A DNA stretch of 64,000 nt from Oligoflexales bacterium (GTDB lineage Bacteria; Bdellovibrionota_B; Oligoflexia; Oligoflexales; JAPPIL01): NCBI GenBank assembly GCA_965215515.1, contig OZ244057.1, positions 2,082,472-2,146,471 of the forward strand, written 5' to 3'. Below the pieces are notes generated by a model. That model saw only the letters and a program-made list of their open reading frames with translations, was not told the DNA's origin and did not search any database. The position numbers and the translations under genes were made by a program. Below are positions 9,182 through 26,957 of this stretch, in pieces (within the stretch, counting starts at the first letter, position 1; each line of letters starts with the position of its first letter).

Positions 9182-9208
9182 ACGTGCACCCCAAAGATCG
9201 CCTGCCCC

Positions 9209-9526
9209 TTTCTCGCTTCGCTTCGCTCCGCCAGGCTTTTTTTTCGCTTTCTCGCTCCGCTTCTCATGTCCGATTGCAAGGAGCGAGCTAGCAAGCGAGC
9301 GTTACTAAAAGCCGCTTTGCTTGCTAGCTCCGCTTCGCTCCGCCAGGCCTGTTTGCCGCTTGCTAGCTCCGCTTCGCTCCGCCAGGCCTGTTTGCCGCTT
9401 GCTAGCTCCGCTTCGCTCCGCCAGGCCTGTTTGCCGCTTGCTAGCTCCGCTTCGCTCCGCCAGGCCTGTTTGCCGCTTGCTAGCTCCGCTTCGCTCCGCC
9501 AGGCCTGTTTGCCGCTTGCTAGCTCC
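9209..9526. repeat. Palindromic repeat element with five identical 39-bp tandem units
   Basis: gctagctccgcttcgctccgccaggcctgtttgccgctt at 9323, 9362, 9401, 9440 and 9479, plus a partial at 9518. A hairpin module lies at about 9279-9330 and a variant unit at about 9209-9262. The array begins immediately after the acrB stop. Confidence 0.97.
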
Positions 9527-12500
9527 TCAGGCAACGCTTGCCCTCCTTCTTCTAAAAATTTTCCAAAAAATACCTGCAATATCATCACTTATCCTAACCA
9601 CTGCAGGCAAGACCAATACGGTCAATAACGCGCCACCGAGAATCCCCCAACCCAATGCCAACGCAATCGGAACGACAAACGGGTCAAGACCCCCAAAACC
9701 ATACGCGGTCGGTAAAATCCCCGCCGATGTCGTGATCGTTGTCAAAAAAATCGGACGTAAACGTCGCTGTGCGGCATCTTTGACAGCAGCCACCTTCTCC
9801 AAACCACGCCGCCGTGCACTATTGATAAAATCAATGAACACAATAGCATTGTTGACCACCACACCAGCTAAGGCAATAATGCCGATCATCGCCAAAAAAC
9901 TCAGCGTCATGCCATGCACATAGAAAGCAAAAACAGTTGCGGCAATACCCAACGGAATGGTAGTTGCGATGATAAACGGCTGGTATAAATTCTTAAACAA
10001 CAATGTTAGAAGGAAGATAATGCCAAACAAGGCAAAAATAAAAGTTACCCGCAACGATGCCATGCTCTCTTTAGTATCGCTATCCTCACCGCCAAAATGA
10101 AAAGTGAGGGAAGGATGCTGTGCTGCCATCGCGGCAACCTTCTCGCGCATAAAACTATTCACTACGGCGGAAGTGGTCACCTTGTTGTCAACTTCCGCGG
10201 TAACCGTCACCTGTCGTTGATTGTCTTCATGCTCATAAACCGATACCCCACTGACAGTATCCCAACTTGCAGTCTTCCGTAACGGAATAAGCTGACCACG
10301 ACGATTAGGAATCTCAATATCAGCTAACGCCCGTGCTCCTTGCTGTGCTTCTTGCTGCAATGTGACACGTAAATCTATTTCTTCATCGAGACCACGAATA
10401 GTCGTTGCCACAATACCTTCAAACGCCGCACGCACCGCCAAGCCAATGTCCTGCAACGACAACAGCGCAGCCGCAGCTGCCTCTTGCTTGACTCGCACAC
10501 GCATCTCCTCTTTGCCAGTTACATGACTGTTCTCGACATCAGTCACACCTTCAACGGCACGCAACTGTTCCTCTAACTGCTGCACCGCAGGCAAAATATT
10601 CACATACTCATCGCCACGCACACCGATACTGACCGCCTTGCCCACAGGCGGCCCGCCCGCCACCTGCCTGAAACTTACCACCTCCAAACCTTCTGGCTGC
10701 ACAACATTACTGCGTACATCCTCAACGATAGTGGCCGTGTCACGTTCACGCGTCAAAGCATCCGTTAAATACACCATAATCTCCGCATACTCAGCCCCAC
10801 GTTTCATCCCACGCGGATTATGCATGCCTTGCCGACCAATAATACTAATAAAATCTTCCATCTCACTATCAGGCAAAGAAGCAATATACTCCTCATAAGG
10901 GCGCACCAAACGCTCGGTCTCGTCTAAGGATACCCCTGTCTCCGCTTGCAGACTTATCGAAAACATATAGACACCCCCAGGCGGAAACAACACAAAACCG
11001 ACCTTCTCCTTCGCCAAATAAACCATGCCGCTGAACAAAACAAGTGCCGCTAGAATCACTAAATAACGCAATTTCAACACACCGTTAAGCACATATAGAT
11101 AAGGTTGCTCTACCAGCGGTCGCCAAATTTTGGTATCGAAAAACGATCTGCCACTGCGCAACTTGCTAGTTCTTACCCAACTAGCAACATGATGAGGCAA
11201 AATGAAAAAACATTCCCATAAACTAACCAATAATGAGATAACTACCGCCACAGGAATAAAGTAAATAAATTTGCCAAAAATTCCCGTCATAAACATCATC
11301 GGGGCGAAAACAATAACCGTCGTCATCACCGACGCAGTCACAGGAGCCCAGATGCGTTGTGTGCCTTTAATGGCAGCCTCTGCAGGGCTGAGCCCGTCTT
11401 CGATAAAACGCTGCGCATTCTCCGTGATAACGATGGCATCATCGACCAACATGCCGACAACAATAATCAAGCCCATCATCGAGACAAGATTTAAACTTAT
11501 ACTGCCAAAATGAAAAATAGCCACCACCGCTAGGAACGCAAACGGAATACCAAACACCGTCACCAAAGCGATGGGCAAAGGTAAGATTAAGGCAAGAATA
11601 ACCAACACTAACATCAAGCCAATAACCATATTATTGGTCAGAACTTGCAAACGTCGCTTAACATAATAAGAAACATCGTTAATAAAACCTACCTCGATAG
11701 CAGGATTGATCTTATGTTTCTGCTCGTCAATCGTTTGCCGCACCTTGTCGACTAGAGTAATCGCATCACGATGCTCCTTGCGCAACACCCTGAGGTTCAA
11801 TGACCGTGAGCTGTTAGTTCTATAGCGATACTTTTCTTTGGCAAAAGTCATAGTCACGGTGCAAACATCTTTTATCCTGATACTGCGACCCAACGAATTG
11901 GCACGGATGACGGTATCTTCAACATCTTCAACACCCTGATACTCGCCGATGGTGCGAATAATTATCTCCTTGCTGCTGTCTGTTGCTGCCGAAGACACCC
12001 CACCAGGGATATTGATGTTGTTTTTTTGAATTGCATTTATCAGCTCTGGCAAAGAGAGGCGAAATTTTTTCAGCTTGTCAACATGTGCCTCTATTCTTAT
12101 CTCCAGGTCGCGCATACCGCTGAAGTTAACTTGCGCTACCTCGCTAATTTTTTCTAACTCCCGCTCCAAAAACTTTGCTGCCTTGCGCAACTCTGTCTCC
12201 GCAACATCACCGCTTAACGTCACATCGATGACGGGACGACGCTTGCTTTCCATCAACGTAACTTTGGGGTCTTCTGCTCCGTCAGGCAAAGTCGTGAGGT
12301 TGCTAACGACATCATCTATGTCTATCTTTGCCTCGTTGGCAGTCGCTTGGTCAGGGTCGAGCTGCAAAGCAATGACACTCTGCCCTTCTACCGAATACGA
12401 GGTCATTTTCTTGATACCATCAACCTCCCGCAGAGCTTGCTCCAGCGGGTTAGTGACCAGCCTTTCCAAAGATTCCGCAGCACCGCCAGGGTAAGCTGTC

Positions 12501-15421: not shown

Positions 15422-17821
15422 ATGAATAAAACTCAGCTTAGGTGGTTGTTATTTTTTGTATTTATTGCTGCGGCGGCAGCTTTCTTTGTATTTGATGTGC
15501 AGCAGTTTTTAAGTTTTGCTTATTTGAAGGCACGGCATCTTGAGTTTAGAGAGTATTATGTCCAGCACACGTTGTTAACTGCGTTGTTTTATTTTTGTGT
15601 TTATGTGTTGGTCACGTCTTTGTCGGTGCCTGGGGCGTTGGTGATGACGATTGCGGGCGGGGCGATTTTTGGGGTGGTGTATGGCACGATAATTGTGTCG
15701 TTTGCTTCGACGATAGGGGCAACGCTGGCGTTTTTGGCGGCGCGCTTTATTTTGCGGGATTTTGTGCAGAATAAATTCGCGACGAAGTTGCGGACTATCA
15801 ACGCTGGGATGGAGAAAAACGGTGTATTTTATTTGTTTACTTTGCGTTTAGTGCCTATCTTTCCGTTTTTTATGATTAATATGGTGATGGGCTTGACAAG
15901 AATTAAAACATGGCATTTTTTCTTTGTCAGTCAGGTCGCGATGTTGCTCGGCACGGTGTTGTATGTTAATGCAGGAGCACAGTTGAGCAAGTTGCAGTCG
16001 CCCGCGGATATTTTATCGTGGCAGTTGTTGTTGTCGTTCGCGCTTCTGGGTATTTTTCCTCTGCTCGCGAAAAAAATAGTTGACGTTGTGAAAGCGAGGC
16101 GTGTGTATCGTGGTTTTACGCGCCCGCGTCATTATGATTACAATCTAGTCGTCATTGGGGCGGGAGCGGCAGGCTTGGTCAGTGCTTATATCGGAGCGAC
16201 GGTGAAGGCGAAGACGCTGTTGATTGAGAGGCACAAGATGGGAGGTGATTGTCTCAATACGGGGTGTGTACCGAGCAAGGCACTGCTAAAGTCGGCACAA
16301 ATTGCCGCTTTACAGCACAAGGCACGACGGTATGGGTTTGCTAAAATCGAGTTGTCGTATCTCTTCAGTGAGGTGATGGAGCGGGTGCAGAGGGTGATTG
16401 CGAAGGTTGAGCCGCACGATTCAGTAGCAAGATACAGTGCCCTAGGAGTTGAGTGTCGGCAAGGTGAAGCAAGAATTATCTCGCCGTATGAGGTGCAGGT
16501 AAAGGAGCGAGAAAGCAAAGCTGCTTTTAGTAACGCTCGCTTGCTAGCTCGCTCCTCACACTCAGATGTGGAGAGCGAAGCGGAGCGAGAAAGCGGCAAA
16601 AAAGCCTGGCGGAGCGAAGCGGAGCGAGAAAGCGGCAAAAAAGCCTGGCGGAGCGAAGCGGAGCGAGAAAGCGGCAAAAAAGCCTGGCGGAGCGAAGCGG
16701 AGCGAGAAAGCGGCAAAAAAGCCTGGCGGAGCGAAGCGGAGCGAGTGGTCACGGCGCGCAACATCATTATTGCTAGCGGTGCAACTCCGTTTGTGCCACC
16801 GTTGGCGGGGTTGGAGCAGGTTGACTACTACACTGCCGACACGATTTGGAGTTTGCGTGAGAGACCGTCGTGTATGTTGGTGCTTGGTGGCGGGCCGATC
16901 GGTTGTGAGTTAGCGCAAGCTTTTACGCGGCTCAGCGTAAAGGTGGTGCAATTGGAGCAGGGAACACGGCTGTTGCCGCGTGAAGATGTGGAAGTGTCTG
17001 ATTTTATGATGCAGGTGTTTCGTGACGAAGGTATTGAGGTGCTAACGGAGCATCGGGCGTTAAGTTTTGGCAAAGAGGAGGGCGGGAGTTTTGTTGTTTG
17101 TCGGCATAAGGAGCAGGAGAAAAAGATAAAGTTTGATGTGGTGTTGCTAGCGTTGGGACGCAGAGCGACGGTAACTGGTTTTTGTGGCGAGGCTATGCAG
17201 TTAGATTTAACCGAGCGGGGTACGTTGCAGGTTAATGATTATTTGCAGACCAATTATCCTAACATTTATGCTTGTGGTGATGTTGTTGGGCCGTATCAGT
17301 TCACGCACATGGCTGCGCATCAAGCGTGGTATTGTGCCGTCAATGCTTTGTTCTCGCCTGTGAGTTTCAAAGTCAACTACAGGGTTGTTCCTTGGTGCAC
17401 CTTTACTGATCCAGAGGTGGCACATGTGGGGCTGAGTGTTGCTGAGGCAGAGCGACGTGGTATTGCTTATGAGGTGACGATGTATGGTCTGGATGATCTT
17501 GACCGTGCCATTGCTGATAGCGACGATCGTGGTTTTGTCAAGGTATTGACTGCACCGAAGAGGGACAGGGTGCTCGGTGCAACGATTGTTGGCGCACGTG
17601 CGGGTGAGTTGATTACTGAGTTCGTCAGTGCGATGCAGCATGGCATTGGTCTGAACAAAATCCTCGCCACGATTCATATCTATCCGACCTTTGCCGAAGC
17701 CAACAAGTACGCGGCAGGCAACTGGAAGAAGACGCATGCTTCTGCCCGTGTGCTTGCTTATCTTGAGAAGTTGCATAGCTTGCGGCGGGGGGCAAACGAA
17801 AGGCGAGCACATGGAAGATAA
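15422..17821 (+). CDS. TVP38/VTT-domain + pyridine nucleotide-disulfide oxidoreductase (LpdA/MerA-like) fusion
   Basis: N-terminal LRLVPIFPFFMIN (VTT), GAGAAG, redox CLNTGC, GGGPIG, YACGD and HIYPTFAE. No C-terminal Cys pair, so not MerA. Carries a 78-aa repeat insertion. Confidence 0.9.
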   Translation: MNKTQLRWLLFFVFIAAAAAFFVFDVQQFLSFAYLKARHLEFREYYVQHTLLTALFYFCVYVLVTSLSVPGALVMTIAGGAIFGVVYGTIIVSFASTIGATLAFLAARFILRDFVQNKFATKLRTINAGMEKNGVFYLFTLRLVPIFPFFMINMVMGLTRIKTWHFFFVSQVAMLLGTVLYVNAGAQLSKLQSPADILSWQLLLSFALLGIFPLLAKKIVDVVKARRVYRGFTRPRHYDYNLVVIGAGAAGLVSAYIGATVKAKTLLIERHKMGGDCLNTGCVPSKALLKSAQIAALQHKARRYGFAKIELSYLFSEVMERVQRVIAKVEPHDSVARYSALGVECRQGEARIISPYEVQVKERESKAAFSNARLLARSSHSDVESEAERESGKKAWRSEAERESGKKAWRSEAERESGKKAWRSEAERESGKKAWRSEAERVVTARNIIIASGATPFVPPLAGLEQVDYYTADTIWSLRERPSCMLVLGGGPIGCELAQAFTRLSVKVVQLEQGTRLLPREDVEVSDFMMQVFRDEGIEVLTEHRALSFGKEEGGSFVVCRHKEQEKKIKFDVVLLALGRRATVTGFCGEAMQLDLTERGTLQVNDYLQTNYPNIYACGDVVGPYQFTHMAAHQAWYCAVNALFSPVSFKVNYRVVPWCTFTDPEVAHVGLSVAEAERRGIAYEVTMYGLDDLDRAIADSDDRGFVKVLTAPKRDRVLGATIVGARAGELITEFVSAMQHGIGLNKILATIHIYPTFAEANKYAAGNWKKTHASARVLAYLEKLHSLRRGANERRAHGR
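16504..16745 (+). repeat. In-frame 234-bp palindromic/39-bp-unit insertion bounded by ggagcgag
   Basis: ggagcgag at 16504, 16582, 16621, 16660, 16699 and 16738; four identical units ggagcgagaaagcggcaaaaaagcctggcggagcgaagc (13 aa per unit, SEAERESGKKAWR). Confidence 0.97.
17724..17794 (+). repeat. 71-bp direct repeat, left copy (3' end of oxidoreductase gene)
   Basis: ggaagaagacgcatgcttctgcccgtg...cttgcggcggggggca is repeated at 18772-18844. Confidence 0.95.
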
Positions 17822-26517: not shown

Positions 26518-26957
26518 TCAATCTGCCCCTCGCCGCAAGCTATGCAACTTCTCAAGATAAGCAAGCACACGGGCAGGAGCATGCGTCTTCTTCCAGTTGC
26601 CTGCCGCGTACTTGTTGGCTTCGGCAAAGGTCGGATAGATATGAATCGTGGCGAGGATTTTGTTCAGACCAATGCCATGCTGCATCGCACTGACGAACTC
26701 AGTAATCAACTCACCAGCACGTGCGCCAACAATCGTTGCACCGAACACCCTGTCCCTCTTCGGTGCAGTCAATACTTTGACAAAACCACGATCGTCGCTA
26801 TCAGCAATGGCACGGTCAAGATCATCCAGACCATAAAGCAATACCACGTCGCTCTGCCTCAGCAACACTCAGCCCCACATGTGCCACCTCTGGGTCAGTA
26901 AACGTACACCAAGGGACAACCCTGTAGTTGACTTTGAAACTCACAGGCGAAAACAAA
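26518..26957 (-). pseudogene. Inverted duplicate of the oxidoreductase 3' end (about 17347-17794)
   Basis: Near-identical, with several SNPs and a 14-bp frameshifting deletion; ends LRRGAD*. Confidence 0.92.

Follow-up and report, generated by a model that had tools for sequence, protein, structure and literature searches.

In this study, we examined an in-frame repeat insert within an oxidoreductase gene of an uncultured Oligoflexales bacterium (NCBI GenBank assembly GCA_965215515.1), starting from a stretch of 64,000 nucleotides of contig OZ244057.1 (positions 2,082,472 to 2,146,471 of the forward strand), which is called the window here and is numbered from its first letter. The host gene (15422..17821, + strand) is an open reading frame (ORF) of 799 amino acids (aa), and its product joins an N-terminal VTT/DedA (TVP38/TMEM64) membrane domain to a class I pyridine nucleotide-disulfide oxidoreductase (Pfam PF09335, PF07992 Pyr_redox_2 and PF02852 Pyr_redox_dim), for which the closest solved structures are those of the dihydrolipoyl dehydrogenases (E3/LpdA) and the mercuric reductases (MerA). 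Orthologs are 709-750 aa long; a cluster look-up for length variants of the host protein returned only the records of this genome itself. The redox motifs CLNTGC and HIYPTFAE are both intact, as had been noted in an original prediction made from the letters of the window alone, and the catalytic residues C277, C282, H752 and E759 show no variation across 95 homologs. Compared with five genus orthologs, the gene has a dN/dS of 0.08-0.12 at a dS of 0.9-1.3, which points to long-term purifying selection, though this does not in itself prove present-day activity.

The whole repeat insert, including the two GGAGCGAG octamers that bound it, covers 16504..16745 (+ strand) and adds a net 234 bp, or 78 codons, to the gene (residues ~362-441). 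The octamer is found at 16504-16511 and again at 16738-16745, with exactly the bounds and the 234-bp spacing that had been proposed. Between these points, a head module (16504..16555, + strand), which is a 52-nt imperfect hairpin GGAGCGAG...CTCGCTCC coding ERESKAAFSNARLLARS, is followed by a 16-nt linker TCACACTCAGATGTGG (16556..16571, + strand) that codes SHSDVE, joins the head to the array and is kept beside the head in the NuoCD, UvrD-like and 9.3-kb copies described below. Then come four tandem 39-bp units GGAGCGAAGCGGAGCGAGAAAGCGGCAAAAAAGCCTGGC (16572..16727, + strand), each coding SEAERESGKKAWR, and a terminal 18-bp partial unit GGAGCGAAGCGGAGCGAG (16728..16745, + strand), which ends in the right-hand GGAGCGAG joined to TGGTC (ER|VV). 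A pattern search, for which the chance expectation was none, placed the unit starts at 16572 (with one mismatch), 16611, 16650 and 16689, and Tandem Repeats Finder (TRF) reported 4.4 copies of a 39-bp period with 100% matches at 16573-16745. When folded as DNA, the head reaches -14.1 kcal/mol (z = -2.7; z = -3.25 together with the linker), and the 39-bp units are less self-structured than shuffled sequence (z = +2 to +4.6) because one of their strands is ~77% purine. The predicted succession of hairpin, linker and four units is therefore borne out; the 234 bp, although equal to six times 39 bp as noted, do not consist of six units, as there are four full units and a partial one, and the 68 bp of head plus linker are not two canonical units. 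The octamer belongs to the element itself, being at once unit core and left arm of the head, and its status as a target duplication is putative.

The 39-bp unit (A14 C8 G16 T1) contains no stop in any of the six frames, and the same is true of 6.7% of 39-mers drawn at random from this genome. Two of the three sense frames are interrupted by stops in the head, which leaves only the frame in use open through the whole insert; the earlier claim of freedom from stops in six frames applies to the unit, with its single T, but not to the complete insert. An intergenic sister copy of the composite element was found by TRF and sequence search at 9203..9530 (- strand). It consists of 5.3 units of a variant with GCTAGC, followed by head, linker and one unit; its head folds at -16 kcal/mol (z = -3.2), and its GCTAGC, which had been correctly recognized beforehand, leads to stops in one frame per strand. 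A test for a CRISPR array found the repeats of the insert contiguous and identical, with no unique spacers between them. There was no match to a known RNA family in Rfam, the only regional hit being a sub-threshold microRNA match at 9280-9336 (E = 0.21), and no Pfam family is listed over insert residues 365-446, hence no intein domain.

Independently assembled contigs from four public runs (one study, four samples) cross both junctions, one leading out of the left flank to the head and the other out of the last units to the right flank, and no direct flank-to-flank (empty-site) joint was found among the contigs of these runs. Related in-frame segments are also present in the genomes of sister species, which likewise speaks against an assembly artefact. 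In an AlphaFold2 model built on the 95 homologs (mean predicted local distance difference test, pLDDT, of 77.5), residues 365-438 have a pLDDT <50 and are flanked by the confident strands 357-362 and 440-450 (pLDDT ~94-95), with a helix predicted in part of the array. The model places the insert in a beta-hairpin turn of the flavin adenine dinucleotide (FAD) domain, right before the IIIA(T/S)G strand, which agrees with the loop location expected for it, and the inserted peptide is hydrophilic and probably disordered. Orthologs of other families and orders read ...SPYEVEV-xGx-R..T.RNIIIATG at this position, and the window protein reads ...SPYEVQVKER, then 78 aa minus 3, then VVTARNIIIASG. Deleting one 234-bp interval gives YEVQVKERVVTARNIII, which, as anticipated, has the same length as the empty-site orthologs (YEVQVDGKKVTARNIII).

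To describe the family to which the insert belongs, we counted matches to its core GGAGCGAGAAAGCGGCAAA at <=2 mismatches, with the reversed pattern as a control (~0 matches). This genome (G000; one contig, 2.18 Mb, 52.6% G+C) holds 77 core copies, and two metagenome-assembled genomes (MAGs) of the same genus, G001 and G002, hold 435 and 348, respectively. In 38 other relatives, among which the neighbouring genus is represented, there are 0-1 core matches, and the exact 21-mer was found, among ~185,000 species genomes, only in the two sister MAGs. These counts show a dispersed family that is confined to one genus. The core matches of G000 group into 31 loci, with array periods of 18, 27, 29, 39, 41 and 57 bp and 1-13 units per array, and identity is 98-100% within each array and 85-95% between loci. 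Coding sequence makes up most of the genome, and yet most family copies lie between genes, which is the pattern expected if selection removes all but harmless insertions. The head is present in five copies in G000, three of them inside genes and all of these in one frame, with 97% identical heads among the five. G001 has 368 copies of a head-like module (GCTGCTTTTTGTAACGCTCGCTT(C/G)C), which occur in mosaics and arrays of ~45 bp together with other small modules (e.g. L073-L102), and G002 has zero head copies despite its 348 cores. Elsewhere in G000, a family array of 13.3 27-bp units in sense orientation fills the gyrB-gyrA spacer (C1:993347-993706); a 654-aa ORF over this array near 993 kb was rejected as an antisense artefact. 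In addition, 95-bp tRNA-Gly-derived repeats at C1:2012515-2012851 contain the core variant GGAGCGAGGAAGCGGC.

At least eight other intact housekeeping genes of G000 hold in-frame copies of the family, always with the purine-rich strand as the sense strand, so that the proposed search for the repeat in further proteins was productive. The largest of these inserts are found in DapD (C1:350421-350821), where ten units add 134 aa within a hairpin turn, in a ComEC-like protein (C1:563459-563724; seven units) and in the linker between NuoC and NuoD (C1:1528506-1528760; three units, the head and one more unit). A UvrD/AddA-like helicase carries the head only, a 1250-aa DnaJ-domain protein one unit and a hotdog thioesterase a short insert (AERESGKERESGG), and BioD-BioA and an LptF/G-like protein have gained 7 aa (GARKRQG) and 8 aa (GASKRQTG). 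All three sense frames are in use, namely ERESGKQAWRSEA in most cases, SEKAANKPGEAEW in DapD and GARKRQ in BioDA and LptF/G. The arrays within genes have a period of 39 without exception, and periods of 29 and 41, neither of them divisible by three, occur only between genes. Antisense copies in G000 are confined to intergenic regions and to disrupted genes (three serine-recombinase copies and two FtsK-like fragments). Of 24 loci sampled in G002, five fall within long ORFs, four of them in sense and one in antisense orientation. The purine-rich strand is the sense strand in 13 of 14 intragenic copies of intact genes, and the resulting peptides are hydrophilic, made of E/R/S/G/K/A. GCTAGC variants also occur inside genes, in the ComEC-like and the DnaJ-domain protein, with the TAG falling out of frame, and the orientation bias seems to weigh more than stop content. 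What remains of the proposal of a coding-compatible selfish repeat is hence a dispersed family copy that lies in frame within an intact enzyme; the stop-free variant is not a special coding form. The analogy drawn from the outset with Rickettsia palindromic elements (RPE) proved apt, given the in-frame copies in unrelated intact genes with empty sites in relatives.

Several observations on individual carriers and on the host gene itself may be added. A large serine recombinase gene is present in three copies (C1:585944-587456, 619052-620479 and 1757857-1759085), in each of which an antisense copy of a longer element variant splits the reading frame, and one copy ends in an array of seven 41-bp units adjoining a tRNA gene. 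The alanyl-tRNA synthetase (AlaRS) of G002 (G002:C1 near 76334; L060) has a 36-aa antisense family insert (SLPLSSSTSARRD...), which the AlaRS of G000 does not have. The 3' end of the oxidoreductase gene in the window (17700-17821) reads ...LRRGANERRAHGR, and orthologs finish ...RRG; ~9 kb downstream, at 26518-26844 (- strand), lies a 109-aa fragment with 94% identity to residues 685-793 of the oxidoreductase.

We compared the insertion site in ten genus-level orthologs and in distant orthologs. The distant orthologs are all empty, and the site is filled in 8 of the 10 genus orthologs, with differing subfamilies and frames. The occupant of the window (G000) is 78 aa long, and the repeat-derived segments of the same-genus orthologs are often 3-14 aa, at the same codon. 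G002 has one complete 42-bp unit of another subfamily in frame c, with 38/45 identity to a unit of G000 (z ~12); P0001 has a 24-bp short-unit segment in frame a, whose right junction GGAGCGAG|TG is the same as in the window; P0007 has the unit-derived GGAGCGAGAAAGCGG in frame c; and G001 and P0003-5 have degenerate segments of 11-14 aa. P0006 and P0009 are empty, and the native turn GARK of P0006 is what the core encodes in frame c, with identity at 9 of 12 nt. The original prediction had named a related segment in every ortholog as the result that would speak against an insertion. This is not what we found, because the segment of G002 represents another subfamily in another frame and because empty orthologs exist within the genus and beyond it; yet with 8 of 10 sites filled the outcome came nearer to it than expected. 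The cores are perfect in several lineages although dS is ~1 between these species, which argues for recent re-seeding or conversion from other copies over passive inheritance. The oxidoreductase site is thus either a hotspot or a site that was filled long ago and has seen turnover. Family-derived inserts also occur in another hairpin loop of the enzyme (residues ~562-566 of the window protein), namely in P0007 (e.g. ELGSGKESCEAESGKERESGKEPSEACAAES), P0002 and P0008.

G001, G002 and G003 (the next genus) have no insert at the NuoCD, DapD and ComEC sites, and three G002 inserts have clean empty sites in G000, suggesting that family gains are recent and have occurred in both directions between species. 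At L055, the empty site TTGCAGGAGCAGGAG has become TTGCAG|GAGCGAGAAAGC...CACAGC|GAGCAAGAG, and L048 is alike. GGAGC, with which the unit begins, was already present in both targets, and the insert has come to lie between GAGC repeats. GGAGCGAG stands at both ends of the inserts in the oxidoreductase, NuoCD and DapD, and a deletion that retains one octamer brings each protein back to its normal length. No regular target duplication was seen at the junctions compared, and the insert content ranges from 15 to 400 bp. As for a mobilizing enzyme, a Y1/RAYT gene (PF01797, IS200/IS605-type; RAYT, REP-associated tyrosine transposase; IS, insertion sequence; REP, repetitive extragenic palindromic) is present once in G000 (C1:239231-239590) and is missing from the repeat-rich G001 and G002, for which reason a RAYT/IS200 driver was rejected. 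Rpn-type (Transposase_31, PF04754) genes number 18, 63, 9 and 6 in G000-G003 and were found in none of 17 other relatives of the order; they are a weak lead only, being expanded also in G003, which has no repeats. The serine recombinase genes (at 586, 619 and 1758 kb) look disrupted and are not an obvious driver, and no partner IS was found for the head-type element.

In our preferred explanation, which we consider likely, the insert derives from a non-autonomous repeat that is dispersed and specific to the genus, resides in coding sequence in the manner of RPE, is amplified in the manner of the mycobacterial interspersed repetitive units (MIRU), spreads without a transposase and gives rise to a peptide without a selected function. 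The family is built of short purine-rich units (core GGAGCGAGAAAGCGGCAAA, periods 18-57 bp) to which the hairpin head is sometimes attached, and one copy has landed in the beta-hairpin turn of the FAD domain of the VTT-disulfide oxidoreductase. A copy would persist if it comprised whole codons, had a stop-free reading frame, presented its purine-rich strand as sense strand, yielding a hydrophilic peptide, and occupied a loop position; projecting from the loop, it would leave fold and catalytic residues intact. The four identical units would have arisen in place through slipped-strand or unequal recombination, which in 39-bp steps changes the protein by +/-13 residues and hence causes no frameshift. 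That the array is expandable is inferred from the perfect identity of its units and from the 1-10 units at other loci. Spread would occur without a dedicated transposase, as suggested by the absence of Y1/RAYT from G001 and G002, the want of a regular duplication and the 15-400 bp range of insert content, and would likely involve microhomology- or core-mediated copying (template switching, recombination) at GGAGC(GAG)-like targets. Among mechanisms of spread, core-primed copying by template switching or short-homology recombination has in our view a nearly even chance of being the right one, and a classical transposase a distinctly smaller one. A site once seeded may stay a hotspot, which would account for the differing family segments at one codon in 8 of 10 genus orthologs. 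It is most likely that the inserted peptide has no selected function.

A number of observations weigh against this interpretation or restrict it. The microhomology rule is drawn from two clean filled/empty pairs and three octamer-bounded cases, the antisense AlaRS insert of G002 has no GGAGC at its target, and the empty sites at the oxidoreductase locus (GATGGGAAAAAG and GGTGCGCGTAAG) resemble the core only loosely. The protein tree leaves the genus as a polytomy, in which the two empty orthologs form one clade, and therefore a single ancestral insertion with turnover is inseparable from repeated hits. The short Logan contigs break inside the array, and with array/flank depth ratios of 2.2-3.6, which are too noisy, the copy number at the oxidoreductase locus is unreadable. 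The records of the four runs do not state if RNA or DNA was sequenced, and translation of the insert is presumed. Finally, another enzyme could still mobilize the family; Rpn genes are expanded in this family of bacteria, though also in G003, which has no repeats.

Such an enzyme is central to the view that the insert is a classical element of the miniature inverted-repeat transposable element (MITE) or REP type, in which the head with its inverted ends GGAGCGAG/CTCGCTCC would serve in cis as the site of a transposase whose gene lies elsewhere, and the octamer would be a target-site duplication. The head does fold and has 8-bp inverted termini, an 8-bp direct repeat bounds the insert, dispersed copies vary in presence among species, and G000 has one Y1 transposase gene in addition to abundant Rpn-type nuclease genes. 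However, most loci are headless (five heads against 31 loci in G000, 348 cores and no head in G002), and the octamer, as part of both unit and head, requires no target origin. As the Y1 gene is missing from both sister genomes, G003 has Rpn genes but no repeats and the insert content varies from 15 to 400 bp, we regard this explanation as unlikely. A more specific version of transposase-free spread, which we put forward tentatively and ourselves hold to be doubtful, is that the family is a 'copy-in' minisatellite, spreading through template switching or recombination primed by GGAGC(GAG) at purine-rich loop targets with Glu codons, which would re-seed the same sites and homogenize dispersed copies, possibly promoted by the expanded Rpn-type recombination nucleases.

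If the insert was instead a tandem repeat born locally, grown from an ancestral loop and passed on vertically without any insertion from another locus, the additional residues that 8 of 10 genus orthologs have at precisely this codon, the frame-c core reading of the GARK turn of P0006 (9 of 12 nt) and the perfect homogeneity of the units would follow readily. The recurrence of the same head, linker and unit sequence at ~30 other loci, with heads 97% identical, would not, and neither would the different subfamily and frame in G002, the emptiness of two genus orthologs and all distant ones, or perfect cores despite a dS of ~1; local birth is thus very improbable. We think hardly better of a selected functional module, in which the charged 13-aa repeats would serve as a linker, docking or regulatory segment of the host proteins. 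Although intragenic copies are nearly always in sense orientation and hydrophilic, the site is filled in most of the genus and the model predicts a helix for some of the array, one and the same DNA yields unrelated peptides through the use of three frames, and most copies are intergenic. Moreover, length and content at the site are unconserved (3-78 aa), the pLDDT of the insert is <50 and empty-site orthologs are common. Repeats commonly cause misassembly, and the short contigs do break in the array, but that the insert is an assembly artefact, or an intron- or intein-like segment removed before the protein is made, is scarcely credible in view of the contigs from four runs that hold both junctions, the related in-frame inserts of sister species, the lack of an Rfam match and of a Pfam (intein) family listed over the insert, and an insert length exactly divisible by three, with no stop in the host frame.

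The closest behavioural match among known systems is with RPE, alongside which the Wolbachia palindromic elements are named. According to the summary of Ogata et al. (2000, 2002) given in PMC10969869, RPEs enter many metabolic genes without disturbing the reading frame and in keeping with the structure of the protein, and in-frame selfish repeats in Rickettsia have been described under the title 'a unique but recurrent feature'. Like RPE, the Oligoflexales family is genus-restricted and dispersed, lies in frame in unrelated housekeeping genes, whose fold accommodates it, and contributes peptides at the protein surface; in both there is a hairpin-forming module, no transposase is known and presence or absence differs between species. 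In contrast to RPE, the Oligoflexales repeat comes from another phylum and has no apparent sequence relation to RPE, Rfam giving no match and no direct comparison to RPE sequences having been made. It is not palindromic throughout, only its 52-nt head folding; its hairpin module is optional, and it is read in all three sense frames. RPEs are single inserts of ~100-150 bp, whereas the Oligoflexales unit is 18-57 bp long, purine-rich, non-palindromic and tandemly amplified (<=10 units, 134 aa in DapD). Similarity to MIRU (PMC3635867) lies in the dispersed tandem arrays, with units of ~40-60 bp in MIRU, in the changes of copy number and in a unit length that is often a multiple of three. As in MIRU-like variable-number tandem repeats (VNTR), we found dispersed, near-identical tandem arrays whose copy number differs between loci, and copies also lie in operon spacers in the sense of transcription, here the gyrB-gyrA array of 13 27-bp units. 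MIRUs are essentially intergenic, whereas the Oligoflexales arrays lie inside enzyme-coding sequence and would be read as part of the protein.

With REP sequences and REPINs (PMC3116915), the family has in common that it is short, abundant, hairpin-containing and non-autonomous and evolves within the genome. REPINs are extragenic and depend on RAYT, whereas the repeat-rich sisters of our genome are without Y1/RAYT and most units have no hairpin. The small dispersed repeats (SDR) of heterocyst-forming cyanobacteria, reportedly described by Elhai and colleagues in 2008 (a work cited in PMC3116915), are said to be very small mobile units that are nested or mosaic and whose mechanism is not known. 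The mosaic of small modules in G001 is reminiscent of SDR, but sequences and lineage differ, and long in-frame tandem arrays in enzymes are not a known feature of SDR. We regard the Oligoflexales repeats as a new family in a new lineage, one that resides in coding sequence as RPE do, is amplified as minisatellites are and is read in several frames.

The type of outcome described for RPE is thus also found in the unrelated, uncultured Oligoflexales. The design of the element differs, being a non-palindromic minisatellite that would multiply in 13-codon steps, resides in essential enzymes (DapD, NuoCD and the oxidoreductase) and is read in three frames. The family provides a natural experiment, both on the protein sites that tolerate long disordered insertions and on the filters to which selfish repeats are subject, namely the codon multiple, the sense orientation and a hydrophilic reading. 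Clean filled/empty pairs of sister genomes allow tests of transposase-free spread, and in-gene arrays of this kind can mislead gene callers and domain annotation in MAGs. If the copy-in reading is true, the minisatellite would in effect generate, throughout the proteome of a host-associated bacterial genus, loop insertions that stay in frame and vary in length.

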